This document shows positions 94-17,143 of a stretch of 64,000 bases of DNA, piece after piece. The stretch covers positions 360 to 64,359 of the forward strand of contig JAJECO010000095.1 of assembly GCA_022822005.1 (NCBI GenBank). The letters are read 5' to 3'. The stretch comes from Candidatus Poribacteria bacterium (GTDB taxonomy: Bacteria; Poribacteria; WGA-4E; PCPOR2b). The position numbers and the translations under genes were made by a program. Numbering within the stretch: position 1 is the first letter of the stretch; each line of letters starts with the position of its first letter. A model generated the notes under the pieces. That model did no database searches. It was not told the origin of the DNA and saw only the letters and a list, made by a program, of their open reading frames with translations.

Positions 94-160
94 CTGACAA
101 ATCTACGCCAGATAGCATATTATGTGCCGGTCAGCACACAAAAAAATCGGAGGAGTCACC

Positions 161-3100: not shown

Positions 3101-6100
3101 GAGGTGGTGAAGAAGCGCGCCAAGAACGATATTGTCGAACTCCAGAACCTTCTGAACGTGCTTGATCGTCTCGATCGTGATCCGGACGAGGAGACCAAGA
3201 TCCTCCTGCGTGACAACCTGCTCACGATGCGTAACGCCCGATTCCGGAATCTGCAGAAACGGGTGGAAAAGATTGCACGTATCAGCGAGTCGGAATACAC
3301 TCGGAAGATTCGTTCCATCGAGCAAGCAATTGCATTGCAAGATATCTTCAACCGCTACTATACTTCGCTCTTTATCTCAATCGACCTCTCCAGCCAGAAC
3401 GACCAATTCGGCGTATTTAACAAAGGTTGGTTCTACGACCAACAACCTGAATTTGTTCTCCGCCGCGAGTTTGCGTCTATCGGCAACAAACTTGCGGAAT
3501 ACGCGGAGCAAGCTGATTTCGGTGAGCGTATCCAGAAACTATGGACGTTCACTGACGATCAGATCCGCCAAGCGGTGATGAATACCCAGTGGGTAGTTGC
3601 AGCGGGTATCGACCCGAAAAGAGCGATTGAAGGAAAGAGTCTGGAGAGTTTAGTCACTGAACATTACGCAACGCTGGTCGGACTTTCCGGGGTCTCGCGA
3701 CTGATGAAGATGCAGTTTGAACAGATGAGAAATCAGGGTGAGCCTTCGGAGGATATGTTGAAGGATATGGACTACATCCGCAAGGAGGTCGAGCGATTCA
3801 TCCGAAACGACATCCGGGAGGCGCGGAAGAACCGCAAGAATAGGGTTCGTCTGCTCAATCGGCTGGATGCGATGCTTGCCTTACGTTATGAGGATCCGTC
3901 GGAATTTACCCAAGACGAGGTCGATGATATTAAAGCACTCATTAACATCGCGGGTTTTGGCGGTGAGACCAACTTTGTCAACGCAATCTCTGCCAGTGGC
4001 GGTAAGATTTGGAAGACCTACATCCCCGGAAAGATCGCTTTTGATAGCGAGGTGGCGACCCTCACCGGCTTTACGGGCATTGCTTTTGCCACGATTGACG
4101 ATGCACGTGTGCTTACGGATACCCCGCTCGACACAATTGACCGCATGGACCTGCGTAGAGACGGTGCCTTACACAAGCAGGCGAAAACCCTCGCCGCCAT
4201 TCTTATCCAAGGAATGCGCGACCCGAAGATGCCTACCGCCGCCCGGGTGGGTAACTTCTACTGCAACCTATTTGGCGATGTAGTTGAATATGATGCACGT
4301 GAGAGCGCACTACCAAACAAACCGGTGGAGCATCCTATCCTCGCTCTGCGGAGTCAGCACAAAACCATGATGGGCGTACGCGGTGATCTCATCGCAATGG
4401 GAGATAACAAAGGAAACTTTGAGGTCGCGGGGCTTGCAATGGAGGGACGCGCCACTATCCGCCTCAAAGGAACGCAAGAGGTGGAAGCCTATATCCTCGA
4501 CTCCGATTCTGGGGATATTGTCTACGCACCGGATCTCGGAAACTTTGGTGCAAAACTTTTGCCGAACCTGGTCCCGATCAACACCCACCGCCGCGGCTGT
4601 CGAATTGTGGTTTTCCCCTGTGTGTCAACCACCATCTACGATCTTGTGGATCAGCGCTATCTACGGACACTTCGTGAACTGGAGGTTTTTGATGCTGCCA
4701 GCGACAGCCCACCGGAAAAATATGGCGTATCAAAGCCGTGGCAACAAGAAGGCGTCTCAGCGACCGAGCCAATCGCGCTCGTCTATTCAGAGCCTAACAG
4801 CCGTATCAAGGTTGGTATGGCATACGGACAGATTGGCAAACGGTTACTATTGATTAAAGCGAGCAAGAGTGGGACGAAGAATCCAACGCTTTATACGGGC
4901 GAAGGATTTGTTGTGCGTGAAAACGGGAGTATTCGTGTGACACCATACGTTGTTGTCCGCGACATGTGGTGGCTCGATGAGAACCGGGCGAGTTTGTATA
5001 AACGGTTCGGTATTAGCAGCGATCGACTCGACCAACTCCACCAATTTGCGAACGAACATCTGAATCAGGCGGAGGCCGCCCTTACGCAAAAAGACTATCA
5101 GCAGGCGCTCAAGCTGGCTCGTGCCGCGTGGGGATATGAATCTCGTGCGTATCCCGATGTGAAGAAAACAGGCAATGATGTGGTCAACGGCGTGATGTTT
5201 TACCTTGCCCTTCTGATCCCATTTGCTTACTTTATGGAACGGTTAATATTCGCCTTCCCAACGGTCCAAAAACAGATTATGGGGACAGCTGCAATCTTCC
5301 TCGTAGTATTTTTCTTCTTGGCACAGGTGCATCCCGCTTTCCAGATCACCACAACGCCGGTGATCATCCTGATTGCGTTTGTCGTCCTTGCGTTGACGGC
5401 CATTGTTATCAGTATCATCGTCCGAAAATTTGAAGAACAGGTGGAAAAAATCAAGCAGGAAGGATCAAAGGTGTACAAGGCGGACGTGGGGCGTTTGTCT
5501 GCCTCCGCTGCCGCTTTCAGCCTGGGTATTTCCAACATGCGGAAGCGGAAGGGGCGCACCATTCTGACCTGTAGTACGCTGGTTATCCTCACCTTCACGG
5601 TTATCTCGTTTACGTCGGTGCGTACATTTATGCACCCCAACAGCACCAACCTACCGTCAGTAACACCGCGATACACCGGAATGCTTATCCGAGATCAGTA
5701 TTGGAATCCACTTGAGGAACCGGTTGTAAACTCGATTACAAATGATTTACGAAAGACCCAGATCCCCGAAAAGGACCTGCGGCTGCTACTGAAGAAGCGG
5801 TTGGGACAGGAAGGTAAATCTGGAGAGCAGATTGACACAGAAATTGAGGCAATCATAGCCCAATTACGCCAGCAGGAGACATTGGTCGAATTAGGTGAAG
5901 GCTCTGTCCTGCGAGTGCACAACATTGTCGCACCACGTGCGTGGTATCAATCTGCGGGAACAGGCGATCAGTCATTTGTCCAGCTTCAGCGTACCCCCAA
6001 TTTGCAAGATCCTGTACCGCCTGTCAACACGACTACCGGTCAACCGAAGACCTATTCCGCTACTATGCTGGTCGGGATGAGTCAAGACGAACCCGGTGTC

Positions 6101-7576
6101 ACGGGGATTGACCGCTACCTACAATATGGTCGATGGTATCATCCGGACGATGAAGCGGAGTGGCCTACGCAATGGCCCTACGCCTGTGTCCTCCCGAAAG
6201 GCATGGCAGACCTACTCGGCATTACCGAAGCCGATATGGGCAAAGCGACCGTATCCGTATATGGTGCGGACTTCACCGTTACTGGCGTACTCGGTATTGG
6301 CTTCAAAGACCTACAGGATAACGATGGCGAGGAACTGACACCTGTTGACTACCAACTGATGCAGCAGCAGGAAGCTCGAGGCGGCGGTGCAGGTGGACAG
6401 AACCAAGCCATGGAAGGTGAGTTGGAGAAATATATTCATCTGCCTCCTGACGCTGTGGCTATCCTTCCGTATGATGTAGTGATGAATCAGGGCGGGACGC
6501 TACGATCCGTCGCTGTGAACATGGAAGCACAACCTGGCGATCCAACAATCTTCAGTGCGGCAGATAAACTGGATCTGATCATGGCACCCTTGATGAATCG
6601 AATCGCACTTGACTTTTTTGTTGGGAAAGATCGGGATACCTACCTCTACAGCTCAATCGGAATGACCTCATTCTCTGGGATGGGCAACCTGTTCATACCG
6701 ATCTTGATTGCATCGCTGATTGTCTTGAACACGATGCTTGGTGCGGTCTACGAGCGGGTCCGTGAAATCAGCATCTACAGTTCTGTCGGGCTTGCTCCTG
6801 TGCATATCGCCTTCCTGTTCCTCGCAGAGGCGTGCGTGTATGCGATAGTTGGTGCTGTGCTTGGCTACCTGCTCGGACAGGCTGTCGCAACCGTCCTCGT
6901 TAAGTTTGGTTTACTCGCTGGACTGACGCTCAACTACTCCTCGATGTCAACGGTCGTGGCAACCATCATCGTGATGATCGTCGTGATCGGAAGCACACTG
7001 TATCCCGCAATTAAAGCAAGTCGTATGGCAGTACCTGACATCGAACGGAAATGGCAGTTGCCGGAACCTGAAGGCGATGAGTGGCACTTCGATCTCCCCT
7101 TCACTGTGTTAGCAGAAGAATCACTCGGCCTGAATATCTTCATGCGCGACTACTTTGAGGCGCATGCAGACGAATCTGCAAGTGACTTCTATACGGATCA
7201 GGTCGCTTTTGGTCGAACGCCTGTAGAAGTGGAAGGGAAGGAGGAAGAAGCCTACAACATCAGTATGATGGTGTGGCTCGCTCCTTATGATCTCGGTGTC
7301 AGCCAGTCCATTCGACTTGTCACCTCACCGGTCGGCGGCGAAGAGGAAGAGTTGTATAAGATTCACCTCGATGTCCATCGTGAGAGCGGGGAGATCGCCT
7401 CATGGAAGCGCGTCAATCGCCGTTTCCTGAACCTTGTCCGAAAACAGTTGCTAATCTGGCGGACGTTCAGTGCGGATATCCGCGGTGAGTTCCACGAGCG
7501 TGGACGACAAGAGAGCGAAACGGAAGATGCTCCGGGCGTTGGTGGTCTGGCTGCTCAACCAGTACCGGCAGACTAA
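161..7576 (+). CDS. Giant envelope protein: degenerate M28 peptidase/PA domain with LysM inserts fused to a MacB/FtsX-like ABC permease
   Basis: ATG 161 follows GGAGGAG (ORF track starts at 122). Has a signal peptide, M28-like segments (TRVTGY, GYYDS..APGADP, AHFQGLGG, IDLSS, DTPLD), two LysM-like motifs and DGIDNxxDGxIDE repeats. About 7 C-terminal TM segments include the FtsX signature NTMLGAVYERVREISIYSSVGLAP. Confidence 0.85.
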   Translation: MIIKRYFYIIIWLCIFALLSPHADSAVDEQLSVGLSEAAVKIVDKVDIGRMRKDIARLSNLPTRVTGYDEAASGSKYIFDQFVEIGLQNVESREFPVSVPIDHGDGKVEILSEDQTLLKTYRIWSIWPNLVRTSFLPNGVSHLVVSGETLEDIAKSYQVAPESILADPHNQYLRDQATDGSDNDDDGEIDEPGELVLVEGNSLFIPTGGLTAPLFYGGSGELSSFNGKDVGGFWHKVQPNDTLADLAHRFRIGVGSITDDVLNGHLQKTQDGIDNNEDGQIDEYGEIPPLAEILQWDSDGIDNDGDTFVDERPGDETDGIDNNNNGQIDEEGEFIAAYESSIFIPQGSVALVDFNSSTKWINAAMLGAKAVLFIEPETTIRGEAENKFLTVPANIPRFWISKEDADELLAMLGEGGEQTDVPAQKLQARLTSTITWEQRIGQNIRGFLEGGDPTLKDELVVLTGYYDSMSVVPAMAPGADPTGGIATLLELARIFSEEEFRPGRSLLFVATDAHFQGLGGMRAFMEGIGQDIVGREADSPGTPTMRGLRRGLSTDLFEFEELGRKLLLSIDRNVLVDLPPDFFHEVHALKADVASLATTLTDLQSTKGKIDSLRNAQREAKEKEKKKLETTKKREKQGFTEEEKSRLEVNLAKFKKDALQTTQFLQSMLQRTLNLRTQALAECRETQRDLIEQIALPMARLDVWAIDKLEADLAAKRIEGKYVQTPDSSYLVPREREDETYYLPAPSDLPSHLEPDLQLLSANLQDWEFEDPRKFTLQYAHEKLLDRHLDFKGLERIKSARRVVNRAEKSLEAYIEEERRLLERTLETIPASSDSEDLIRNAITQLGAKPDHVPDGFVDELKLFLNESTLKQFDIVQTQLHQKLEMMDPTGGTATSRELDQILIDDLTRDKQSILETAMRNARLERYRIENLLVRHATLNRPYLAEEALVLRHYLPEDAADRAMTVREQIFGQIEEQHLLEVVKKRAKNDIVELQNLLNVLDRLDRDPDEETKILLRDNLLTMRNARFRNLQKRVEKIARISESEYTRKIRSIEQAIALQDIFNRYYTSLFISIDLSSQNDQFGVFNKGWFYDQQPEFVLRREFASIGNKLAEYAEQADFGERIQKLWTFTDDQIRQAVMNTQWVVAAGIDPKRAIEGKSLESLVTEHYATLVGLSGVSRLMKMQFEQMRNQGEPSEDMLKDMDYIRKEVERFIRNDIREARKNRKNRVRLLNRLDAMLALRYEDPSEFTQDEVDDIKALINIAGFGGETNFVNAISASGGKIWKTYIPGKIAFDSEVATLTGFTGIAFATIDDARVLTDTPLDTIDRMDLRRDGALHKQAKTLAAILIQGMRDPKMPTAARVGNFYCNLFGDVVEYDARESALPNKPVEHPILALRSQHKTMMGVRGDLIAMGDNKGNFEVAGLAMEGRATIRLKGTQEVEAYILDSDSGDIVYAPDLGNFGAKLLPNLVPINTHRRGCRIVVFPCVSTTIYDLVDQRYLRTLRELEVFDAASDSPPEKYGVSKPWQQEGVSATEPIALVYSEPNSRIKVGMAYGQIGKRLLLIKASKSGTKNPTLYTGEGFVVRENGSIRVTPYVVVRDMWWLDENRASLYKRFGISSDRLDQLHQFANEHLNQAEAALTQKDYQQALKLARAAWGYESRAYPDVKKTGNDVVNGVMFYLALLIPFAYFMERLIFAFPTVQKQIMGTAAIFLVVFFFLAQVHPAFQITTTPVIILIAFVVLALTAIVISIIVRKFEEQVEKIKQEGSKVYKADVGRLSASAAAFSLGISNMRKRKGRTILTCSTLVILTFTVISFTSVRTFMHPNSTNLPSVTPRYTGMLIRDQYWNPLEEPVVNSITNDLRKTQIPEKDLRLLLKKRLGQEGKSGEQIDTEIEAIIAQLRQQETLVELGEGSVLRVHNIVAPRAWYQSAGTGDQSFVQLQRTPNLQDPVPPVNTTTGQPKTYSATMLVGMSQDEPGVTGIDRYLQYGRWYHPDDEAEWPTQWPYACVLPKGMADLLGITEADMGKATVSVYGADFTVTGVLGIGFKDLQDNDGEELTPVDYQLMQQQEARGGGAGGQNQAMEGELEKYIHLPPDAVAILPYDVVMNQGGTLRSVAVNMEAQPGDPTIFSAADKLDLIMAPLMNRIALDFFVGKDRDTYLYSSIGMTSFSGMGNLFIPILIASLIVLNTMLGAVYERVREISIYSSVGLAPVHIAFLFLAEACVYAIVGAVLGYLLGQAVATVLVKFGLLAGLTLNYSSMSTVVATIIVMIVVIGSTLYPAIKASRMAVPDIERKWQLPEPEGDEWHFDLPFTVLAEESLGLNIFMRDYFEAHADESASDFYTDQVAFGRTPVEVEGKEEEAYNISMMVWLAPYDLGVSQSIRLVTSPVGGEEEELYKIHLDVHRESGEIASWKRVNRRFLNLVRKQLLIWRTFSADIRGEFHERGRQESETEDAPGVGGLAAQPVPAD

Positions 7577-7599
7577 AACGTGATGAGTGAAACGTGAAA
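7577..7599. repeat. Left tandem heptamer array (AAACGTG-type)
   Basis: aaacgtg atgagtg aaacgtg aa directly after the stop codon of the giant gene. Confidence 0.8.
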
Positions 7600-7632
7600 A
7601 CTACACCATAATATAGCAAGAAGTGTAGTCAG

Positions 7633-7994
7633 ATGAACTATGAAGAGTGGGAAGATTCGGTTTCTGCTGAAATCACTAACGATTCTTTATGGAAGATAGA
7701 GGCTTATCGTTTGGGGTTGTTTGCCGCGGCTGTGGGGTGGCATGATGCAACTAAGCTGATGCAGGATAAACGTACGCTTGGGTTGTCAGATCAATTCTAT
7801 CGATCGCTTGGTTCTCTCAGCGCGAATCTCGCCGAAAGCTATTCACGCGGTACAGGCAGGGACCGCGCTCGCTTCTATGAATACGTACTTGGTTCCGCTA
7901 GAGAGAGCCGAGAAAGGGCTGGTGCGTGAAACCGACCCACACATATAAAACGGAGAACACGGATCTTATTTTGTAGAACGTTTCTTTCTTTTAA
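7633..7994 (+). pseudogene. Four-helix-bundle (TIGR02436/PF05635-like) pseudogene, deleted copy of 14326-14796
   Basis: First ~94 aa nearly match the 14326 copy (SANLAE.YSRGTGRDRARFYEY.LGSARESR). An internal deletion follows; the out-of-frame tail HTYKTENTDLIL*NVSFF* matches YTYKMENMNPILQNIPFS*. Confidence 0.85.
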
Positions 7995-8014
7995 TCACGC
8001 ATCACGTTTCACGT
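7995..8014. repeat. Right (inverted) heptamer array
   Basis: tcacgcatcacgtttcacgt; its reverse complement matches the left array (aaacgtgatg.gtga, 14/15). Confidence 0.8.
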
Positions 8015-8034
8015 AAAGGAGAAAAACAGAATCA

Positions 8035-8202
8035 ATGGAAAAATTAGCATACGTCTTAATTTTTGTCGGTGCCCTTTTATGGGTGTTCTCGATTTTCGCT
8101 ATGGGAGGTAGATGGCAGGTACAGCTACTCGCTGCCCTAATTCTCATGGTTGGAATTATCATCGCCCACGTTTGGGAAGAGCTTTACCGAGAAAAAAAAT
8201 AA
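8035..8202 (+). CDS. 55-aa two-TM membrane protein (not in ORF track)
   Basis: AAGGAG upstream; MEKLAYVLIFVGALLWVFSIFAMGGRWQVQLLAALILMVGIIIAHVWEELYREKK*; two hydrophobic stretches and a charged tail; lies within the operon. Confidence 0.7.
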   Translation: MEKLAYVLIFVGALLWVFSIFAMGGRWQVQLLAALILMVGIIIAHVWEELYREKK

Positions 8203-8208
8203 CGGGCT

Positions 8209-8409
8209 CGTGAACCGTGAGAAAAGATTGCTTTGAATCTCCCGATTTCGCTCTATTATTTTGAGTAGGAAACAACCATTGTCGTTCTTACGAAATCGTG
8301 GATTCACGATTTGGTCAAGTTTTAGCCCCTGAAACAAACCAAATTGGAACCGATCTTATCAAGGTGGGTATCTCTCCATTCTGAGAGTCTTGGACCTCAC
8401 GTTTTACGT
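8209..8409. repeat. Heptamer-bracketed non-coding insert with central hairpin
   Basis: cgtgaaccgtga (8209-8220) and tcacgttttacgt (8397-8409) flank a segment containing the perfect hairpin aaatcgtg-gatt-cacgattt (8293-8312). Confidence 0.5.
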
Positions 8410-8427
8410 CCTGAAAGGAGCATAAAT

Positions 8428-10425
8428 TTGGCAAGAGAAAGGGTGTCGCAAGCAGAAGAGTGGCAAGCTTGGGCACAGCGTTATGATGTTGAGGGTGGTT
8501 TAAGAACCTTTGAGTCCGGCTTAACTCTCAAAGTCTTTCTGGGCGCAATCTTCATCGGATTATTGATGATGCCGGGTTCAATCTATCTGACACTGGTTGC
8601 AGGTCAGTCGGGCGCGGGTGCTGCGCCTTGGGTAGCGGTTATTCTGTTTACAGAATTGGCACGCCGGTCTTTCACAACTGCAAGGAGACAAGAACTTTAC
8701 ATTTTGCTGGGGTTAACCGGCATGGCAGTTGGCTCTGGAATCCAATATCGTGCCTATCCATTTGTCTGGTACGCCTACTTTATCAACACACCGCAGGCAC
8801 AGTCGTATGAAATCGCGGACAAAGTCCCCTATTGGGTCGCACCTGCGAAGGACGCGGTGGCGATTGCAGAGCGTTCGCTCTTGCACATGGACTGGTTCTG
8901 GCCCCTTGCGATCTTTTTAGTCATGAAGTTGCTGGCAGAGGTTCGCTATATTAGCGCGAGCTACTTTCTGTTCCGTCTGACAGCAGATTTAGAGCGACTC
9001 CCCTACCCGTTGGCACCGATTCAGGCACAGGGTGCGACCGCATTAGCCGAAACCACCGGACAGGGGGAAACATGGCGTTGGCGTGTCTTTTCAATCGGAT
9101 CCATGGCGGGACTGTTCTGGGGGTTTTTCTATATCGGTATTCCCGCGCTCACAGGCGTGATGATGTCAACACCGATACAGATTCTGAAAATTCCATTTAT
9201 CGACTTCACCCCAAGTATCGAAAGTTTTGCGCCGTCGGGTATGTTTGCCCTATGGACAGATTTTGGACTGATGCTACAAGGGTTCGTGCTGCCGTTTCCA
9301 CTCATTATAAGCGAATTCGCTGCCGCGATGTTCACGCAATTTATTCTGAATCCGCGAATCCTTTATCCATTGGAGATCCTACATCAGTGGCGTCCGGGCT
9401 TGGATATGCGTGGTGTTAAGTTGTTTAATGACCTTGATTTCTGGTTGAGTTTCAATATGGGCAAATCCTTCAGCTTCGCCGCTGTTGGTTTGGCAGCGTC
9501 CATCCCAATCATGTTGAGCCTCAGAAAAACAAAACAACAAGACGCTGGCGCGCGAGGCTCGCTGCAGACGCCGCCGGGCCGCGGCGATTTCCCAATCTGG
9601 CTGATGGGCGGTCTGTGGGGTCTCAGCATGGTGGTTTATGTGTGGATTGTGCATCGGATGGTGCCAAACTTCCCGGTTTCATTCTTGCTCGGCTTTGCCT
9701 TTCTGTACACACCGTTGCATTCCTATATCAACGCACGAACATTCGGGGTGTTAGGACGACCGCTCTTTGTGCTGCCTTACATCCATCAGGCAACTTTTAT
9801 TTTAAGCCGCTACGAAGAGATCGATATCTGGTTTGTCCACCTCCCAGATGAGGATTACGGCGCGGGTACACAGCATTGGCGTGTGCTTGAATTGACAGGT
9901 ACAACCTTCACCAGCGATGTGCTTGGGCGAGCGTTGATGGTGCCGCTCTTGATCGTCGCGACGATCGTGGTCTGGCATTTTATATGGCAGATCGCGCCTA
10001 TCCCGTCCTCACAGTATCCTTTTGCACAGACATGGTGGCCCCTCTACGCAACCGATGAAGCCCTCTGGAAAACCTCACTCCGAGATGGAAATAGCCAGAT
10101 GCTACAAGCCATTCGCGGCGATTACGTGTCAGCTGGCTTTACCTCCTCAGTAGCAATTTACGGCATTCTCTGGATGGCAAAGGCACCAAGTATGTGGTTC
10201 TACGGAATTGTTGGGGGAATCGGTCAAGACCCAGGCATGATGGTTCCACGCGTTGTCGGCGCACTCATCGGTCGGTTCTACATGATCAAACAGTTCGGCC
10301 TGAAACGCTGGTTCATGTATAACCCCGTCTTGGCGGCAGGCTTCATCTGTGGCGTCGGGCTTGTTGGTATGGGCACGGTTGCGATCGCGTTGGTTTCCAA
10401 AGCGGTGATTGTCAAGCCGTTTTAG
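8428..10425 (+). CDS. OPT/YSL-like polytopic peptide transporter, paralogue 1
   Basis: TTG 8428 after AAAGGAG gives an N-terminus matching paralogue 2 (ARERV.QAEEWQ); many TM segments; OPT-like N-terminal motif LTLKVFLGA.F.GLLMMPGSIYL. Confidence 0.7.
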   Translation: MARERVSQAEEWQAWAQRYDVEGGLRTFESGLTLKVFLGAIFIGLLMMPGSIYLTLVAGQSGAGAAPWVAVILFTELARRSFTTARRQELYILLGLTGMAVGSGIQYRAYPFVWYAYFINTPQAQSYEIADKVPYWVAPAKDAVAIAERSLLHMDWFWPLAIFLVMKLLAEVRYISASYFLFRLTADLERLPYPLAPIQAQGATALAETTGQGETWRWRVFSIGSMAGLFWGFFYIGIPALTGVMMSTPIQILKIPFIDFTPSIESFAPSGMFALWTDFGLMLQGFVLPFPLIISEFAAAMFTQFILNPRILYPLEILHQWRPGLDMRGVKLFNDLDFWLSFNMGKSFSFAAVGLAASIPIMLSLRKTKQQDAGARGSLQTPPGRGDFPIWLMGGLWGLSMVVYVWIVHRMVPNFPVSFLLGFAFLYTPLHSYINARTFGVLGRPLFVLPYIHQATFILSRYEEIDIWFVHLPDEDYGAGTQHWRVLELTGTTFTSDVLGRALMVPLLIVATIVVWHFIWQIAPIPSSQYPFAQTWWPLYATDEALWKTSLRDGNSQMLQAIRGDYVSAGFTSSVAIYGILWMAKAPSMWFYGIVGGIGQDPGMMVPRVVGALIGRFYMIKQFGLKRWFMYNPVLAAGFICGVGLVGMGTVAIALVSKAVIVKPF

Positions 10426-10882
10426 TTCATTGGTGCACCAGCGCATTTGGACTTACGCAAAAACAAATCTCCGATCGAATAAGTAGATTGAGATTCAGAT
10501 CTCGATATCCAACTCAGACTGAGCATAGCTGAAGTCCCTACTGCGATGAGTGTTTGGACAGTCTTTTTTTCATTACAAAGGCAGAATTAGCCGGAGGGCC
10601 TATTGGTGCGCGATGGCGGTGCGTATAATATTTTTCTGTATTTGCCCACTTGTTTTCGTCGTTACTATTGAGCCATTACGCCTTATGGTAGATTTTAGAA
10701 TTACCTAGACACCCCAATGCACGGCCAACTTCCTAAATCCCCTTACTCAACCGTCCCGCCTGTACCGATCTTATCGGGGAAACCAAAGGTCGGCGTTATT
10801 GGTAAGTGTTTACGTATTTTTCTAATTCACTATAGTTATGAACCAATGAGTTCCTGTACCAATGAACTCCTGAAAAATGCAC
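10425..10882. repeat. Octamer-bracketed non-coding insert between the OPT paralogues
   Basis: Left gttcattg gtgcacca starts in the TAG stop; right array ttatgaac caatgagt tcctgtac caatgaac tcctgaaa (10836-10875); contains a REP (10483-10506) and a MITE copy. Confidence 0.7.
10684..10834. mobile_element. MITE copy 1 (diverged, 151 bp)
   Basis: Ends tatggtag...aattcactata and internal aaggtcgg.gttattggtaa.tgt align with 25278-25447 and 31732-31940. Confidence 0.65.
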
Positions 10883-10892
10883 CCGAGTTATT

Positions 10893-12890
10893 ATGGCAAG
10901 AGAACGAGTTACACAAGCAGAAGAGTGGCAGGTCTGGGCGCAGCGCTACGATATAGATGGTGGTATCCGCACCTTTGAGTCGGGATTAACACTGAAGGTC
11001 TTTCTGGGCGCACTTTTTGTCGGCTTGCTAATGATGCCGGGATCAATCTACCTGACTTTAGTCTCCGGTCAGTCGGGGGCTGGGGCGGCGCCGTGGGTTG
11101 CGGTTATCCTGTTCACGGAGTTGGCGCGTAGATCTTTTACAACCGCTCGGCGACAAGAGCTTTATATGTTACTCGGACTCACCGGTGCAGCGGTCGGGTC
11201 TGGGGGGCAGTATCGCGGCTTTATCTGGTACGCCTATTTTGTCAATACGGCACAAGCTGCGTCGTATGAAATTGCGGATAAGATCCCCTTCTGGGTTGTG
11301 CCGCCGAAAGATGCGTTAGCAATTGCAGAGCGTTCGCTCTTGCACATGGACTGGTTTTGGCCGATTGCATTCTTCCTGATATTCAAGTTGCTGGGAGAGC
11401 TCCGCTATATCAGTGCGGGCTACTTTCTGTTTCGTCTGACAGCGGACATGGAGCGGCTTCCCTACCCGATGGCACCCATCGAAGCGCAGGGCGCGACCGC
11501 CTTGGCAGAGACTACGGGCCGTGTGGAAACGTGGCGTTGGCGTGTCTTTTCGGTCGGATCTATGGCGGGGCTGATCTGGGGCTTTATTTATATCGGTGTC
11601 CCCTCACTCACGGGGGTGATGATGTCAACGCCGATACAACTCCTCAAGATTCCATTTATTGACTTTACAAATGTAATCGAGGAAATTGCGCCAACGGGTG
11701 TGTTCGCACTATCGACGGACTTTGGAGCGGTCCTTACAGGTTTTGTGCTGCCATTCCCCGTTATCATGACGGAACTGGCGGGGGCGTTCTTCACCCAGTT
11801 TATCCTGAATCCACGCCTCCTTTATCCAGCGGAGATCCTGCATCAGTGGCGTCCCGGCTTAGATGTCCGTGGCACCGGTTTGTACAACGGTCTCGATTTC
11901 TGGATCAGCTTCGGGATGGGCAAATCTTTCAGTTTCGCTCTCGTCGGCATGGCAGCCTCGATTCCGATGGTGTTAAAGTTTAAGCAAGTCCGACAGGAAC
12001 AGGCGGGGGCAGGCAGATCGTTACAAGCACCTCCCCCGGGACGCGGTGATTTTCCACTCTGGTTGATGGCGATCCTATGGCTCTTTGGGATGGGGACTTT
12101 CATCTATATTGTCCACACCTATATGGTGCCGAATTTCCCGTTGGTCTTCCTACTTGGTTTTGCGTTTTTGTACACCCCGGTCAATTCATACATCACCGCA
12201 CGGACGTATGGGATTCTTGGTCGTGACCTTTTCGAGATTCCTTATCTCCACGAAACGACATTTATTTTGAGCCGCTATGAGGAGATTGATATTTGGTTCG
12301 TCCCTCTGCCGGATGAAGACTATGGCCGTGGGACACAGAGTTGGCGTGTCCTTGAATTGACAGGTACCACCTTCACCAGTAGTATCGCTGCGCGATTGCT
12401 GCTTATGCCGATCTTGATTGTCTCTGGAATTGTGGTTTGGCATTTTATTTGGAAAGTTGCGCCAATTCCGTCTGCACAATATCCTTTTGCGCAGACGTGG
12501 TGGCCTCTCTATGCGACCAACGAAAGTCTCTGGAAAACCTCGCTTCGAGACGGAAACAGCCAGATGTTGCAAGCCATTCGTGGAAACTATGTGGCGGCAG
12601 GTTTCACCTCTTCGTTGGCAATCTACGGTCTGCTCTGGGTGGCAAAGATGCCGAGTATGTGGTTCTACGGAATTGTTGGGGGAATCGGTGCAGATCCCGG
12701 CATGATGCTGCCGAAGGTGATGGGAGCGATTATTGGTCGGTTTTACATGATAAAGAAATTCGGTCTGAAACGATGGTTCATGTTTAACCCCGTTTTGGCG
12801 GCAGGCTTTACTTGCGGTGTTGGGCTGATTGGGATGGGAACGGTTGCAGTTGCACTGGTGTCCAAAGCAGTCATCGTAAAGCCATTTTAG
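10893..12890 (+). CDS. OPT/YSL-like polytopic peptide transporter, paralogue 2
   Basis: 665 aa, co-linear with and highly similar to 8428-10425 over the full length. Confidence 0.7.
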   Translation: MARERVTQAEEWQVWAQRYDIDGGIRTFESGLTLKVFLGALFVGLLMMPGSIYLTLVSGQSGAGAAPWVAVILFTELARRSFTTARRQELYMLLGLTGAAVGSGGQYRGFIWYAYFVNTAQAASYEIADKIPFWVVPPKDALAIAERSLLHMDWFWPIAFFLIFKLLGELRYISAGYFLFRLTADMERLPYPMAPIEAQGATALAETTGRVETWRWRVFSVGSMAGLIWGFIYIGVPSLTGVMMSTPIQLLKIPFIDFTNVIEEIAPTGVFALSTDFGAVLTGFVLPFPVIMTELAGAFFTQFILNPRLLYPAEILHQWRPGLDVRGTGLYNGLDFWISFGMGKSFSFALVGMAASIPMVLKFKQVRQEQAGAGRSLQAPPPGRGDFPLWLMAILWLFGMGTFIYIVHTYMVPNFPLVFLLGFAFLYTPVNSYITARTYGILGRDLFEIPYLHETTFILSRYEEIDIWFVPLPDEDYGRGTQSWRVLELTGTTFTSSIAARLLLMPILIVSGIVVWHFIWKVAPIPSAQYPFAQTWWPLYATNESLWKTSLRDGNSQMLQAIRGNYVAAGFTSSLAIYGLLWVAKMPSMWFYGIVGGIGADPGMMLPKVMGAIIGRFYMIKKFGLKRWFMFNPVLAAGFTCGVGLIGMGTVAVALVSKAVIVKPF

Positions 12891-12921
12891 TTCATTGGTT
12901 CACTAGTGCATTAGTTCATTA
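12890..12921. repeat. Left tandem octamer array (GTTCATTG-type)
   Basis: gttcattg gttcacta gtgcatta gttcatta, starting in the TAG stop codon. Confidence 0.8.
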
Positions 12922-12941
12922 AGGGCACTTTGAGATGAGAG

Positions 12942-13337
12942 TTGGATATGTTTAAGAAGACAGAACAACTCTGTGATGAAATTTGGGAAGTCGTAGCAAA
13001 ATGGGACGGTTTTGCAAGAGATACCATCGGCAAACCACTAGTCCGTAGTACGGATTCGAGAGGCGCAAACTTGGCAGAAGGAGACGGGCGATACCACTTC
13101 AAAGAAAAACTAAACTTCTACTACATTGCACGGTGCCCATTAAAGGAAACTGGCTACTGGCTGCGGCGGGCCCAGAATCGCCGATTGCTCACTCCAGGCC
13201 AAACTGCTCACCTGCTCAATCGTATGCAATCCGTGCACCGATGGATTAACAGTGTGATTGGACAACGCCGCCAATGGACCGCCCAATTACGCGAACAAAC
13301 TGACGAATACAGTATTAACGAATCATTAAACCTGTAA
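12942..13337 (+). CDS. Four-helix-bundle protein (TIGR02436/PF05635-like), second subfamily, possibly decaying
   Basis: DEIWEVVAKWDGFARDTIGKPLVRSTDSRGANLAEGDGRY..KEKLNFYYIAR..LKET.YWL matches the family pattern; the 5' end looks frameshifted (H-F-E then a 4-nt shift before E-L-D-M-F-K). Confidence 0.75.
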   Translation: MDMFKKTEQLCDEIWEVVAKWDGFARDTIGKPLVRSTDSRGANLAEGDGRYHFKEKLNFYYIARCPLKETGYWLRRAQNRRLLTPGQTAHLLNRMQSVHRWINSVIGQRRQWTAQLREQTDEYSINESLNL

Positions 13338-13350
13338 CCAATGAACCAAT
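13316..13350. repeat. Right (inverted) octamer array
   Basis: taacgaat cattaaac ctgtaac caatgaac caat; aaccaatgaac is the reverse complement of gttcattggtt in the left array. Confidence 0.7.
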
Positions 13351-13351
13351 T

Positions 13352-14281
13352 ATGAAATGGACAACTTTAGGGTGGAATGGCATTACCGTCGAGCTTCCTG
13401 AGGATTGGGAGTTGAGCGGATTATCTGGCGATGACAAAAGCGGGTATTTGCGCCTTGAGGACGCTGATATGCCGCGCCTTGAGTTAAAGTGGTCTGAGTC
13501 AAAGCAGAAGAAGCCGGATCTCCAACGCGTTCTCGACGACTATTTTAAGCTTGTTCGAAAAAATTATAAGCGTAGAGACACAAACCTCCACATCCAGCGT
13601 AATATTAATCTGATCAAGGACCCGCAGTTTTTCGAGGATCGAGAGGTTGCTTTCTTCAACTGGAAGGGGGAGATTCGGGCGACCGGCGTCATCTTCCACT
13701 GCCAGATCTGTAAGCGGATCACAATTGTGCAGGTTATGGGGCATCTCAAGGAAAATATTAAAGAAACAACCAACCGCATTCTGACTTCTGTTCAAGATCA
13801 CCCCGTAGGACAGACAACGCTTTGGAGTGCCTACCAACTCAATGCAGAAGTCCCGCGACGGTATCGGCTTGACAAGCATAAACTGCTGTCCGGCTATCTA
13901 CTTTTTTCATTCGTAGATGGCAGCCGAAAGGTTAGCATTGAACGGTATGGGGTCGCAGATGTAACCCTGAAGGAACAGGATCTTGAGGAGTGGTTTCGAG
14001 CAAGATATGCGAAAGCTATCCGTGGATATGGCTTCTCAATTGAATCCAGTAACGGTGAGGCGGATGAGAAACTAAAGTTAATCGGGGAGGAAACCCGTCT
14101 TATAGACCGCGTGCCCCTCGCGCCCGCTCTGGTTATGGATAAGGTCATGCGTCGTAAAACTTTTGCCGCTAACCTCTGGCGTTGTCATCACTCAAATCGG
14201 ATTTACGTCGTACAAGCAATTGCGAAGCAGGATGCAGCGAAGACTGCAGAAGAGATTGCGGCGAGTATCCGGCGTCATTAA
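13352..14281 (+). CDS. Uncharacterised soluble protein (309 aa)
   Basis: Long ORF in the operon with no signal peptide or TM segment; family not recognised. Confidence 0.75.
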   Translation: MKWTTLGWNGITVELPEDWELSGLSGDDKSGYLRLEDADMPRLELKWSESKQKKPDLQRVLDDYFKLVRKNYKRRDTNLHIQRNINLIKDPQFFEDREVAFFNWKGEIRATGVIFHCQICKRITIVQVMGHLKENIKETTNRILTSVQDHPVGQTTLWSAYQLNAEVPRRYRLDKHKLLSGYLLFSFVDGSRKVSIERYGVADVTLKEQDLEEWFRARYAKAIRGYGFSIESSNGEADEKLKLIGEETRLIDRVPLAPALVMDKVMRRKTFAANLWRCHHSNRIYVVQAIAKQDAAKTAEEIAASIRRH

Positions 14282-14309
14282 CGAGTGAAACGTGAAACGT
14301 GATGCGTGA
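14281..14309. repeat. Left tandem heptamer array (4 units)
   Basis: acgagtg aaacgtg aaacgtg atgcgtg a. Confidence 0.85.
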
Positions 14310-14325
14310 CAGGAAATGTACTCGG

Positions 14326-14796
14326 ATGAACTATGAAGAATGGGAACATTCAGTTTCTGCTGAAATTATCAAGGATTCTTTATGGAAGATGGAGGCTTAT
14401 CGTCTGGGATTATTTGCTGCGGATGTGGGGTGGCATGACGCAACTAAACTGATGCGGGATAAACGTACGCTTGAATTGTCAGACCAACTCTACCGAGCAC
14501 TGGGTTCTATCAGTGCGAATCTCGCCGAAGGCTATTCACGCGGCACCGGCAGGGATAGAGCTCGTTTCTATGAATACGCGCTCGGTTCCGCTAGAGAAAG
14601 CCGGGATTGGTACTACAAGGGGCGACACATATTGGGTCCAGCGGTTACTACTCATCGTCTGAGTCTGCTTACCCAAATTATTCGGCTGCTACTGACGATG
14701 GTTCCACAACAACGTCAGGAAATTCTACATGAGACCCGATATACCTACAAAATGGAAAACATGAATCCTATTTTACAAAATATTCCCTTCTCCTAA
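14326..14796 (+). CDS. Four-helix-bundle protein (TIGR02436/PF05635, 23S-IVS/Avd-like), intact
   Basis: SDQLYRALGSISANLAEGYSRGTGRDRARFYEYALGSARESRDWY family motif; ATG 14326 (the track's 14299 start reads through the repeats). Confidence 0.85.
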   Translation: MNYEEWEHSVSAEIIKDSLWKMEAYRLGLFAADVGWHDATKLMRDKRTLELSDQLYRALGSISANLAEGYSRGTGRDRARFYEYALGSARESRDWYYKGRHILGPAVTTHRLSLLTQIIRLLLTMVPQQRQEILHETRYTYKMENMNPILQNIPFS

Positions 14797-14825
14797 TCAC
14801 GTTTCACGTTTTACGTTTCACGTTC
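14797..14825. repeat. Right (inverted) heptamer array (4 units)
   Basis: t cacgttt cacgttt tacgttt cacgttc; can pair with 14284-14309 at 22/26 Watson-Crick plus 2 G-U. Confidence 0.85.
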
Positions 14826-14846
14826 ACTAATGAACCGAATACGCCG

Positions 14847-15263
14847 ATGATTAACACAATCCTTTACAAACTCCGACTAAAGAAACCCCCAGAATCCCAA
14901 CTGGATCGCGCAGATATCTTACAATCGTTGCCGCTGCGCAATCAGTTAATCGAGTGGGAGGTCGATGACAAGGGGGAAGTTGCGCTGGTAATCCCTCAGA
15001 AGGAGACGGTGTGGCTGCGGTTAGTGGCAAAACTGTTTATGCTGCCTCCCAACCGTGTGGTCGTCTTAGATGATGTCGGGGGTTTTGTGTGGCAACTGTG
15101 CGACGGACATAACTCCATCGGTCATATTGTCAAGCAGCTTAGTGGAAAGTATCGCATGACGAGAAAAGAGGCAGAGACATCGCTGTTCACGTTTATGCGG
15201 CAGTTAGGTAAGCGGGGAATGGTAGGATTTGCGGTTCCCCAAAACGCGAAGAAAGGAAAGTAA
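14847..15263 (+). CDS. PqqD-family (RRE-like) protein
   Basis: VVLDDVGGFVWQLCDGHNSIGHIVKQLSGKY..TRKEAETSLFTFMRQLGKRGMV matches the PqqD winged-helix pattern. Confidence 0.8.
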   Translation: MINTILYKLRLKKPPESQLDRADILQSLPLRNQLIEWEVDDKGEVALVIPQKETVWLRLVAKLFMLPPNRVVVLDDVGGFVWQLCDGHNSIGHIVKQLSGKYRMTRKEAETSLFTFMRQLGKRGMVGFAVPQNAKKGK

Positions 15264-15267
15264 CAAA

Positions 15268-16092
15268 ATGGCAGAATTAGAAGGTTTAGCTCCGGAAACA
15301 GCGGCGCATACCGCCGTTCCGACGGAAACGCCCGCACGATTTGCACGGGATCTACCCAAGGAAAACACAGTACGGGTGAGGAACCTGATCAAGAAATATG
15401 AGATGGGCACCACCGTCGTTGAGGCGTTGCGAGGCACCAATTTTGAGATTCGCCGTGGTGAATATATCTCCATTATGGGACCATCAGGTTCCGGTAAATC
15501 AACACTTTTCAACATGATTGGTGGGTTGGACAAACCAACAGAAGGCAGGGTCTACATCGATGAGGTGGACATCGCTCAACTGGATGCCTATGAATTGGCG
15601 TGGCTGCGCTGCCGCAAAATCGGTTACATTTTCCAGTCGTTCAACCTAATCCCGGTGATGACCGCCCTCGAAAATGTGTCGCTTCCTATGATTTTCGCAG
15701 GGATGACCGCTGATGATAGCCGTACAAAAGCCATTGAACTGCTAACCACTGTGGGGTTAGGAGAGCGGGTCCAGCATAAACCGCTTGAACTCTCAGGTGG
15801 TCAGCAACAGCGTGTTGCAGTGGCGCGTTCCCTCGCAAACGATCCCGCAATCGTGCTTGCAGATGAACCGACGGGAAACCTTGATACACGGACTGGACTT
15901 GAGATCATCGACCTCCTAAAAAGGCTGAACGAGGAGAACGGGGTCACGATTATCACAGCTACCCACGATACAAAGATGCTCGATGTGTCGGATCGAATTT
16001 TTTACATGGCGGATGGCAAAATTGACAAGATGGAGACCCGCGAAGAGATCGATCTGCAGGTTGGTAGGCTTGACGGTGAGGAAGTTGGATAG
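15268..16092 (+). CDS. LolD/MacB-type ABC transporter ATP-binding protein
   Basis: GPSGSGKST, GYIFQSFNLIP, LSGGQQQRVAVAR, VLADEPTGNLD, ATHD. Confidence 0.95.
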   Translation: MAELEGLAPETAAHTAVPTETPARFARDLPKENTVRVRNLIKKYEMGTTVVEALRGTNFEIRRGEYISIMGPSGSGKSTLFNMIGGLDKPTEGRVYIDEVDIAQLDAYELAWLRCRKIGYIFQSFNLIPVMTALENVSLPMIFAGMTADDSRTKAIELLTTVGLGERVQHKPLELSGGQQQRVAVARSLANDPAIVLADEPTGNLDTRTGLEIIDLLKRLNEENGVTIITATHDTKMLDVSDRIFYMADGKIDKMETREEIDLQVGRLDGEEVG

Positions 16093-16095
16093 GAA

Positions 16096-16147
16096 TGAAA
16101 CGTGAAACGTAAAGCACGAACAATCCGCACACATCACGTCTCACGTC
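16096..16147. repeat. Empty heptamer cassette / hairpin between convergent genes (possible terminator)
   Basis: tgaaacgtgaaacgtaaa, about 20 nt, then tcacgtctcacgtc. Confidence 0.7.
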
Positions 16148-17143
16148 TTAATAGGTTTCTTTGAACAAGCGTGCTTTATCCCGTGCTCGCTCGATCTTTG
16201 ACCATTCTGGCGCATCGCGGGACAACCCCTCGATATCCGCTATGGTCAGACCGTCCGGTACGCTGACAAGGTTCGATCCTATCCGATAGAGCCACGGGTA
16301 GATGCCATATTCCATGCCCTTTAGTCCGCACATATAAAATAGGGTATCCGGTTGTTCTAACAGGGGGATGAGGCCCTCCTGATTCTCTTCGAGCCGGTCT
16401 TGGACATACATCTTGCCGCCGCGCGCGTTAGTTTGTTCGCGGCTAACCGCGGTGGTGTAATGGAAGTTCGGATGGCGTTCTGCGAAATGGAGGAATTCGT
16501 CGTTATACATAATGTCTGTGGAATATGGAACGCCAAAGACAAGCCATACTTCCCGATCGAATCCCTGATTAAACAGCTCAACAAGCATCCCGACAAAGGG
16601 GGCGATTCCGGTCCCTGTTGCTGTGAAGACGTAATTGTAGTCGAGCGGGTTATCTGGCAGCAGGAAACTCTTGCCAACGGGACCCGTGATCAACATCTCA
16701 TCTCCGGGCCGCGCATCACAGATATAGTTTGAATCCACACCGAGCACCAACTCGCCTGTTTCCTCATCCTCCGTGATTTCCCGTTTTACACACAGCGATA
16801 CGGTTTCCCCCTTCCAATCATCCCCCCAACAGGCAGAAGTGATCGAATACAAGCGAATCTTGTCGTTCAGCGCTTCGTGCGCATAATTGAACTCCGTGCT
16901 ATTGAAGCGTCCAGTTGGCACCACTCCGATACTCTGACCAATGCGATATTTCCCCACCATCTTGCTCCCCTTCAGATTAAGCACGACATGCCAGCCGTAA
17001 TTCGGGCTGGAACTGTCTGTAATCCGATACTTACTCACGACCTCCGCCGGAAAGGGATTTTTTGGCGTATAAATATTTACCGCTGTTTCTGGAATTGACA
17101 TAAGTGGTGAATCAGCTGGTTTTTCTAAGAAAGACGTTATCAC
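16148..17143 (-). CDS. Ferredoxin--NADP+ reductase-like flavoprotein (plant-type/BoxA-like FNR domain)
   Basis: RLYSITS, VSLCVKR, ITGPVG, ATGTGIAPF, YMCGLKGM, C-terminal ETY; GGGAGG before GTG. Confidence 0.85.
   Translation of the reverse strand: MITSFLEKPADSPLMSIPETAVNIYTPKNPFPAEVVSKYRITDSSSPNYGWHVVLNLKGSKMVGKYRIGQSIGVVPTGRFNSTEFNYAHEALNDKIRLYSITSACWGDDWKGETVSLCVKREITEDEETGELVLGVDSNYICDARPGDEMLITGPVGKSFLLPDNPLDYNYVFTATGTGIAPFVGMLVELFNQGFDREVWLVFGVPYSTDIMYNDEFLHFAERHPNFHYTTAVSREQTNARGGKMYVQDRLEENQEGLIPLLEQPDTLFYMCGLKGMEYGIYPWLYRIGSNLVSVPDGLTIADIEGLSRDAPEWSKIERARDKARLFKETY

Follow-up and report, generated by a model that had tools for sequence, protein, structure and literature searches.

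Four-helix-bundle genes framed by inverted tandem arrays in intercistronic spacers of a Poribacteria genome: candidate intervening-sequence-like passenger cassettes

A 64,000-nt stretch of the genome of the sponge symbiont Candidatus Poribacteria bacterium (GenBank assembly GCA_022822005.1, contig JAJECO010000095.1, positions 360 to 64,359; hereafter the window) contains genes of the PF05635 four-helix-bundle (4HB) family in the spacers of a single operon, each lying between a tandem array of a 7- or 8-nt word and an array of its reverse complement. The window is contig C38 of the 6.0-Mb assembly, which consists of 97 contigs, and positions 7400–16400 were read in detail. On balance, we favour the view that gene and arrays together form a DNA-level passenger cassette resembling an intervening sequence (IVS), composed of a 4HB gene and inverted arrays of its own lineage-specific word, residing in intercistronic spacers and turning over quickly. 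In the best reading of the data, these cassettes overlie solitary arrays and empty hairpins that share their words and make up a much larger, longer-lived population. From the sequences we infer that the 4HB protein recognises the array of its own word.

Association of inverted arrays with PF05635 genes

Membership of PF05635 was assigned where the score of the Pfam hidden Markov model exceeded the gathering threshold of 33.8 bits; the genes of the window scored 64.2 bits (12942), 52.4 bits (14299/14326) and 37.9 bits (7633, truncated). Two search methods revealed five PF05635 genes in the whole genome, with three in the window, one on contig C78 and one, with an in-frame TAG, on contig C87. 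Reading of the flanks revealed AAAACGAG-type octamer arrays and their complement around the C78 gene, and GCGAGGR heptamers and their complement around the C87 gene. Inverted arrays were thus present around all five genes, built from four words: GTGAAAC (twice), GTTCATTG, AAAACGAG and GCGAGGR.

The association was further evaluated on all 4,716 called genes with a strict test that required tandem units on both sides and reverse complementarity between them. Six genes passed, three of which were the 4HB genes of the window with inward-facing arrays, while the other three showed outward polarity, with the right arm of the preceding spacer on one side and the left arm of the following spacer on the other. 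Inward inverted arrays were therefore found at 3/5 4HB genes and at 0/4,711 other genes (Fisher p = 6e-10), which bears out the genome-wide tie between arrays and 4HB genes that a preliminary description of this DNA, made from the sequence alone, had set as a check. Ranking of all genes by the energy of their flank duplexes was too noisy (median -20 kcal/mol), and the word-based test was used instead.

A conserved motif, R-x3-S-x3-N-x2-E (GxxRxxxSxxxNxxE), has been described for PF05635 (PMC3936711). It could be recognised in the translations as LGSISANLAEG (14326 and 7633), SRGANLAEG (12942) and RSVSGQIAEG (C78, with Q for N). The fold of the family is a four-helix bundle, which is a pentamer in Xcc0516 (PDB 2GSC). 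The 14326 protein had only a weak sequence match to 2gsc_A (E = 0.002), and 12942 had no sequence match to it. The ratio of nonsynonymous to synonymous substitution was 0.06–0.22 in nine comparisons of 4HB genes, some of which were between copies at different loci, and the 4HB protein, including 14326, is under purifying selection. Within the genus the number of 4HB genes was 0–6 per genome, and they were often broken.

The six array-bracketed sites

Tandem 7- or 8-mer arrays began at the upstream stop codon, or at most 2 nt from it, at five junctions of the operon and at its convergent end, and at the same six sites the reverse-complement array ran up to the ribosome-binding site or start codon of the following gene, or to the convergent stop codon. 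The words were GTGAAAC-type heptamers or GTTCATTG-type octamers. All features of the sites (S1–S6) lie on the forward strand of the window as follows.

7577..7602, forward strand: S1 left arm, heptamers AAACGTG ATGAGTG AAACGTG AAAAC, from the TAA stop of the 2484-aa gene
7633..7929, forward strand: S1 cargo, truncated PF05635 gene of 98 aa
7995..8016, forward strand: S1 right arm, TCACGCA TCACGTT TCACGTA, up to the AAGGAG of the 55-aa gene
8209..8222, forward strand: S2 left arm, CGTGAAC CGTGAGA, two units
8223..8395, forward strand: S2 cargo, 173 nt, non-coding, single copy in the genome
8396..8410, forward strand: S2 right arm, CTCACGTTTTACGTC, two units, followed by TGAAAGGAG (ribosome-binding site) and the TTG of the first 665-aa gene
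10423..10450, forward strand: S3 left arm, degenerate octamers from the TAG stop (TAGTTCATTGGTGCACC...), weak, with about 1.5 clean units
10451..10836, forward strand: S3 cargo, non-coding, the right half being a copy of a dispersed repeat
10837..10872, forward strand: S3 right arm, ATGAACCAATGAGTTCCTGTACCAATGAACTCCTG, inverted octamers
12887..12921, forward strand: S4 left arm, TTAGTTCA TTGGTTCA CTAGTGCA TTAGTTCA TTA, taking in the TAG of the second membrane-protein gene
12948..13337, forward strand: S4 cargo, intact PF05635 gene (ORF 12942), 129 aa from ATG, octamer-word type
13335..13352, forward strand: S4 right arm, TAACCAATGAACCAATTA, overlapping the stop of the cassette gene and reaching the ATG of the 309-aa gene
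14283..14309, forward strand: S5 left arm, GAGTGAAACGTGAAACGTGATGCGTGA, 2 nt past the TAA of the 309-aa gene
14326..14796, forward strand: S5 cargo, intact PF05635 gene (ORF 14299), 156 aa from ATG, heptamer-word type
14795..14826, forward strand: S5 right arm, AATCACGTTTCACGTTTTACGTTTCACGTTCA; beyond it lie what is left of an older octamer hairpin (CACTAATGAACC) and the pqqD-like start
16094..16115, forward strand: S6 left arm, empty hairpin between the convergent stop codons
16133..16148, forward strand: S6 right arm, empty hairpin between the convergent stop codons

All six sites announced in the preliminary description were thus recovered, together with the cargo that it had reported: PF05635 genes at three sites (one truncated), non-coding DNA at two and an empty hairpin at one. 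Its wording that almost every junction is occupied holds for the five junctions and the convergent end, while the overlapping junction between the pqqD-like and ABC genes has no array. Its statement that the cassettes encode no transposase was also correct. The truncated gene 7633 of S1 was 86% identical to the 14326 gene across 94 residues, with the C-terminal third missing. No other copies of the cassette interiors or of the S2 cargo were found in the genome by blastn, only the arms being repeated. In the S3 cargo, about 10683–10835 is a dispersed repeat (tatggtagattttagaattacctagacac...) with approximately 90–100 genome copies in blastn, a repeat resembling a miniature inverted-repeat transposable element (MITE) and nested within the octamer hairpin.

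As the cassettes occupy the spacer between a stop codon and the next ribosome-binding site, the host genes stay intact. GTGAAAC-type left arms have a period of 7, so that three units give TGA in all three frames. Because the period spreads TGA in this manner, an array abutting a gene end supplies a stop in any frame, which may explain why arrays start exactly at stop codons.

The host operon

Analysis of the open reading frame (ORF) list and Pfam matches revealed that the host genes form a single operon, read in the same direction and closed by a convergent oxidoreductase gene on the minus strand.

122–7576, forward strand: giant host gene of 2484 aa, TAA stop
8035–8202, forward strand: 55-aa membrane-like gene with an AAGGAG ribosome-binding site
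8428–10425, forward strand: first membrane-protein gene of about 665 aa, TTG start, TAG stop
10893–12890, forward strand: second membrane-protein gene of about 665 aa, TAG stop
13352–14281, forward strand: 309-aa gene, ATG start, TAA stop
14847–15263, forward strand: PqqD-family (pqqD-like) gene
ends at 16092, forward strand: ABC ATPase gene
16148–17143, minus strand: convergent oxidoreductase gene

The two membrane-protein paralogues were 79% identical, each followed by TAG and an octamer array, and their duplication may have carried the octamer array along with the gene. Four more distant genera had only one copy of the gene, and the duplication is therefore genus-specific. The flanking host genes could be aligned over their full length with orthologues in 20 relatives, in agreement with the earlier claim that no host ORF is disrupted. 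A scan of positions 7400–16400 revealed no promoter-like or terminator-like sites exceeding those of shuffled sequence. Elsewhere in the window, a 126-nt tandem repeat (37928–38381, 3.6 copies, 70% identity) probably encodes a repeat-domain protein with a 42-aa period.

Turnover of cassettes at orthologous junctions

The orthologous operon was compared in the 20 relatives, 16 of them congeneric with flanking proteins 88–100% identical. Among the 16 congeneric genomes every junction was hypervariable in length, with truly empty states of 4–27 nt, a maximum of 3.4 kb and the following ranges.

J1, between the giant gene and the 55-aa gene: from 21 nt (TAAAAGGAG...) up to 1.9 kb
J2, between the 55-aa gene and the first membrane gene: from 27 up to 246 nt
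J3, between the two membrane genes: from 27 nt up to 3.4 kb
J4, between the second membrane gene and the 309-aa gene: from 56 nt up to 3.2 kb
J5, between the 309-aa gene and pqqD: from a stop/start overlap up to 568 nt
J6, between the ABC gene and the convergent gene: from 11 nt up to 1.2 kb

Comparison of the interiors by blastn revealed heptamer-type cassette DNA at J1 and J5 of the window, at J5 of the two closest relatives, L001 and L002 (97% identity), and at J4 of L004 (83% identity, frameshifted). At J6 of L008 a heptamer-type remnant could be detected, in which the first 75 nt are joined to the last codons by an internal deletion; J6 of L016 showed, by eye, only the 3' end of a heptamer-type cassette, and in L010, L014 and L015 the junction measured 11 nt. 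The octamer-type cassette was found by blastn at J4 of the window and, with an internal deletion of approximately 100 nt, at J1 of L001, while J4 of L009 retained a 47-nt remnant of its 3' end. The J5 gene of L001 had one extra nucleotide at codon 3, and its left arm contained one 7-nt unit fewer than that of the window. The S2 cargo was also present at the orthologous junction in L002, and in L014 by eye only, with no blastn hit; L015 matched only its first 28 nt, and five relatives had an empty J2 of 27 nt. In L010, J1 consisted of TAAAACGTAAAGGAG, in which the start of the left arm in the window is fused to the end of the right arm at a common ACGT, and because of this exact fusion the sequence resembles the footprint of a deletion.

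Empty, filled and differently filled states of the same junctions were therefore observed, as the preliminary description had anticipated for orthologous junctions. The cassettes turn over at the DNA level: they are gained, moved, swapped for another word type, truncated, frameshifted, internally deleted and precisely removed. On a tree of the flanking genes, J1 and J2 were filled in basal and in several derived lineages, with identical empty alleles scattered among them; this scatter means that precise loss occurred repeatedly or that recombination spread the empty allele. Across the genus the arrays persisted at the conserved junction edges while the interiors changed. At J5 of L007, L010, L011, L012 and L016, an ORF for a membrane protein of about 95 aa (MKWYDSGP...) was observed; it is preceded by a heptamer array and followed by inverted octamer arrays, so that its two arms are not complementary.

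Match between protein lineage and word

The flanks of 23 4HB proteins from Poribacteria genomes were read by eye, and 14 further loci were added. Ten words mapped onto the 4HB protein tree required nine changes, the minimum possible, and several clades include copies at different loci. In the clade of 14326, proteins 75–100% identical used GTGAAAC; among the further loci, those at 75–83% used GTGAAAC or GTGATAC, and proteins 66–69% identical to 14326 had GTAATGC or GTAAAAC arms. The word thus diverges stepwise with the protein. A heptamer-type copy in G020 (L134) had six or more perfect units per arm. The suggestion made earlier that the protein may recognise the repeats would fit these clade-specific words.

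Generality was assessed in 80 loci of other species that encode relatives (50–91% identical) of the C78-type protein, distributed over Verrucomicrobiota, Bacteroidota, Chloroflexota, Planctomycetota, Cyanobacteria and other phyla. Of the 75 loci with both flanks available, 41 passed the strict inverted-tandem-array test, compared to 1–8 in 20 flank-swapped controls. The period was 8 in 30 of the 41 passing loci, as in the C78 octamer.

Arrays as a genome-wide layer

Arrays were counted as double units of a word with at most 1 mismatch. For GTGAAAC this gave 222 arrays, of which 190 were intergenic, compared with 5–15 for shuffled units, and the octamer variants GTTCATTG and GTTCATTA formed 98 and 84 arrays against 0–2, giving 129 octamer arrays after merging. 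The genome altogether held approximately 330 arrays, and further word families, including AAAACGAG, ACAGGCGGG and AAGGACGC, were also present. The pairing of arrays described earlier stands for the six sites of the window, while genome-wide most arrays are solitary.

GTGAAAC read inward from the nearest gene edge in 152/189 cases (p = 1e-17), both on the stop-codon side (90 vs 11) and on the start-codon side (62 vs 26), and octamer arrays likewise pointed inward (93 vs 26). This polarity of solitary arrays is the look that former arms of two-fold symmetric elements would have, and is not readily explained by a function that depends on which way transcription runs. Words were also layered, an octamer array lying at most 40 nt inward of a heptamer array 20 times and outward of it 0 times, and other small repeats were nested within arrays. 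A multi-copy element (tactgatacatttgaataataaccactggtg...gttgat) that includes a short heptamer array occurs, for example, at C20:123033, C22:151011 and C39:4840, and in some copies only of this tactgatacatttgaataataaccactggtg element a small palindromic element (CCCGATAAATC...GGGACAGGCGGG) is inserted in that heptamer array.

At a deeper taxonomic level, array numbers were related to the presence of the gene: the GTGAAAC and octamer words were at background counts in genera and families without that gene type. GTAATRC was less clean, with 44 double units in G023, which has no PF05635 gene. The 9.1-Mb genome G020, of a sister genus, had ten PF05635 genes, 1,355 GTGAAAC and 733 GTAATRC double units.

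Comparison with known systems

A close parallel is offered by the IVS of 23S rRNA in Leptospira and Coxiella burnetii; in the latter, the IVS bearing the S23p ORF has a 28-bp terminal stem that is cleaved by RNase III in vitro (PMC4990558). Shared features are a PF05635 protein as loop cargo, terminal inverted repeats making a stem of about 25–28 bp (predicted for the present arms), a position inside a host transcription unit where cutting out is harmless and a sporadic occurrence among close relatives. Unlike these IVS, the present cassettes lie between protein-coding genes of one operon and not in 23S rRNA helices, each arm repeats a 7- or 8-nt word in tandem where the IVS have a unique inverted repeat, and hundreds of solitary arrays of the same words exist elsewhere in the genome.

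The organisation also resembles that of repetitive extragenic palindromes (REPs) and REP-associated tyrosine transposases (RAYTs), including REPINs, in that a low- or single-copy gene stands between inverted copies of a short repeat that also occurs at hundreds of other intergenic places, with a separate repeat for each gene lineage, and the repeats outlive the gene. The present protein, however, is a four-helix bundle (PF05635) without the HUH/Y1 nuclease motif, and its repeat takes the form of a tandem array in place of a single palindrome. The RAYT-like genes of this genome use other repeats. Three such Y1_Tnp genes with their own inverted REPs were located:

C54:113435-113977: RAYT-like (Y1_Tnp) gene with own inverted REPs
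C63:3936-4301: RAYT-like (Y1_Tnp) gene with own inverted REPs
C58:206220-206438: RAYT-like (Y1_Tnp) gene with own inverted REPs

As each of the three has its own unrelated REPs, a RAYT/Y1 transposase was rejected as the driver; these loci are the classical REP/RAYT arrangement, a parallel within the same genome.

Short tandemly repeated repetitive (STRR) heptamers of cyanobacteria likewise consist of 7-nt units in short, mostly intergenic tandem arrays with hundreds of lineage-specific copies, but the present arrays differ by their fixed inward polarity at gene edges and their inverted pairs around a specific gene family. A survey of heptamer repeats reportedly found a general excess in bacteria. 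TAACTGA heptamer repeats are described in Beggiatoaceae (PMC4679880), and a term search of that paper gave no hit for 23S, 'four helix' or 'intervening sequence'.

Avd, the accessory protein of diversity-generating retroelements (DGRs), belongs to the PF05635 clan and binds nucleic acid together with a partner enzyme (PMC10053308). The proteins are related four-helix bundles, but unlike in a DGR, no reverse transcriptase or template/variable repeat was found beside any of the five present genes. The sole reverse-transcriptase gene of the genome is an orphan, and a DGR/Avd role was therefore not supported:

C1:27699-29282, minus strand: reverse-transcriptase gene, 528-aa open frame with a long C-terminal extension

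MITE and foldback elements differ from the present cassettes in that here the interiors are not multi-copy and only the arms are repeated.

Proposed course of events

In the favoured reading, transcription of the host operon would carry the cassettes along, and the 4HB protein would recognise arrays of its own word in either DNA or RNA form. The arms may direct new copies of the cassette to spacers or hairpins where the same word is present beforehand, by arm homology or with the help of the protein, a pattern that would resemble a RAYT gene and its REPs without the nuclease fold. Cassettes could be lost through slippage across the hairpin base. The approximately 330 mostly solitary arrays might then be leftover half-sites or empty hairpins, or non-autonomous copies, which outlive the genes. 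By analogy with ORF-bearing 23S rRNA IVS, the stem in the transcript might be cut by RNase III, which would turn intercistronic spacers into safe harbours; excision of the cassettes by RNase III would be a reasonable analogy. A bolder extension would make PF05635 proteins sequence-specific readers of tandem 7–9-nt words, each driving, now or in the past, the spread of its arrays and itself as a selfish system, in a RAYT/REP-like but non-enzymatic manner. This we put forward tentatively, as a possibility that is rather doubtful.

Several observations weigh against the favoured reading. Its parts include no mobility enzyme or mechanism for the spread of the cassettes, and we know of no catalytic motif in 4HB proteins. 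Exchange of alleles by homologous recombination in the flanking genes, without transposition, could explain much of the filled/empty pattern. The congruence between protein and word is partly inflated by orthologous loci, and one divergent 4HB gene (L138, G020:C83:21200-22700) has CATTCAG arrays that are direct, not inverted. Only about 12% of arrays had an inverted partner of the same word within 1.5 kb, with 27/222 inward against 21 outward as control. Within the genus, array counts showed no clear relation to the cognate gene for any of three words. Across all 20 genus genomes GTGAAAC double units numbered 65–252, including G001, G008 and G012, which have no PF05635 gene, and the mean was approximately 130 with and 129 without the heptamer-type gene. 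The octamer word occurred 52–302 times per genome across the genus, yet an intact octamer-type gene was found only in this genome. GTAATRC arrays were no more than slightly in excess in genomes with the cognate gene, the built-in control being invalid, as the reversed word is a rotation of itself. Furthermore, blastn revealed no remnants of 4HB cassette DNA elsewhere in the genome, so that most arrays are not traceable to 4HB cassettes and the idea that every array is a decayed 4HB cassette was rejected.

Alternative explanations

The preliminary description had proposed that the cassettes act on mRNA. In such an RNA-level element the arms would form a stem in the polycistronic mRNA and RNase III would release the cassette RNA, and its neutrality, protein expression and perhaps spread through an RNA intermediate would play out on RNA. 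Stems are indeed predicted, as the arms paired in the minimum-free-energy fold of all six whole cassettes with 10–26 left-right pairs, and the S5 arm duplex reached -38.1 kcal/mol over approximately 25 bp (z = -8 vs shuffles). The 28-bp stem of the Coxiella IVS cut by RNase III (PMC4990558) provides a precedent, the cassette genes are mostly oriented like the upstream host gene, and promoters or terminators of their own did not rise above shuffled sequence. When left arms were aligned with reverse-complemented right arms for 83 cassettes (3,043 aligned positions), approximately 17% of positions were mismatched, with 146 G·U-type and 150 A·C-type transitions and 220 transversions (43% of mismatches). 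Because G·U- and A·C-type mismatches were nearly equal, selection for pairing of the sense RNA is not visible, and among these 83 arm pairs no G·U excess that would mark an RNA-level stem was found; what is conserved is the word together with its inverted arrangement. Most arrays of the genome are solitary and unable to form such a stem, and the inward polarity is also seen upstream of start codons in divergent regions. The claim of action on mRNA thus has predicted arm stems at all six sites behind it, while the G·U test gives no sign of selection on the sense RNA, and we consider an RNA-level element unlikely. A STRR-like layer of host repeats, to which we assign a lower probability still, would consist of arrays arising by slippage and recombination and retained at gene edges for a host function, such as spacing, stabilisation of mRNA or translational insulation, with the 4HB proteins as non-mobile word-binding regulators beside their own operator arrays. 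The persistence of arrays at conserved junction edges with changing interiors, their equal abundance in genomes without a 4HB gene, the one-sided layering of octamer within heptamer and the genus-specific words, the octamer being confined to this genus, all speak for it. Close relatives, however, keep the operon intact with fully empty junctions, so that the arrays are dispensable. The 4HB genes are also patchy and often broken within the genus, and the same cassette DNA occurs at four junctions of one operon across genomes. Moreover, proteins 50–67% identical have their own arrays in many phyla, which indicates horizontal spread as a unit.

The explanation that we regard as the most improbable would treat the sites as ordinary foldback elements of MITE type, which an enzyme encoded elsewhere (a Y1/RAYT or DDE transposase, for example) moves in trans, the 4HB gene being incidental cargo. 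The terminal inverted repeats without an internal transposase would agree with it, as would the three Y1_Tnp genes and several MITE families of the genome. Comparison of empty and filled alleles revealed possible short direct repeats beside the insert, AAA at J1 and TGAA at J2, although their lengths differ and the boundaries are ambiguous. Against it, none of the Y1_Tnp genes lies between these arrays, each having different REPs of its own, and the non-4HB cargo is single-copy. One protein family is tied to the array arms across phyla, with a word that differs per lineage; random cargo would not show such a tie.

Significance

To our knowledge, PF05635 has been known since 1993 only from the ORFs of 23S rRNA IVS and from relatives of Avd, with no function assigned outside retroelements. 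Short heptamer arrays are over-represented in many bacterial genomes and unexplained. A description of PF05635/4HB genes enclosed by tandem-array arms was not found in the literature searched in full text. The window and the 16 congeneric loci provide nucleotide-level evidence that gene and inverted arrays are one unit, and the same data show that this unit comes and goes in intercistronic spacers and that the word co-diverges with the protein.

Within cas loci, Zhang and Ye found 18 23S_rRNA_IVP genes, one such position being that between cmr3 and cmr2 (PMC3936711), and a 2023 CRISPR survey listed the 23S_rRNA_IVP domain among array-linked ones. We suggest that such cas-locus and array-linked genes are what passenger cassettes of the present kind would produce. 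4HB genes should be read only with caution as members of the operons that surround them, as with the 'cas-associated' 23S_rRNA_IVP genes (PMC3936711). If PF05635 proteins are indeed readers of their words, one mechanism would join the ORFs of rRNA IVS, the 4HB genes in cas and other operons and the STRR-type heptamers of many phyla.

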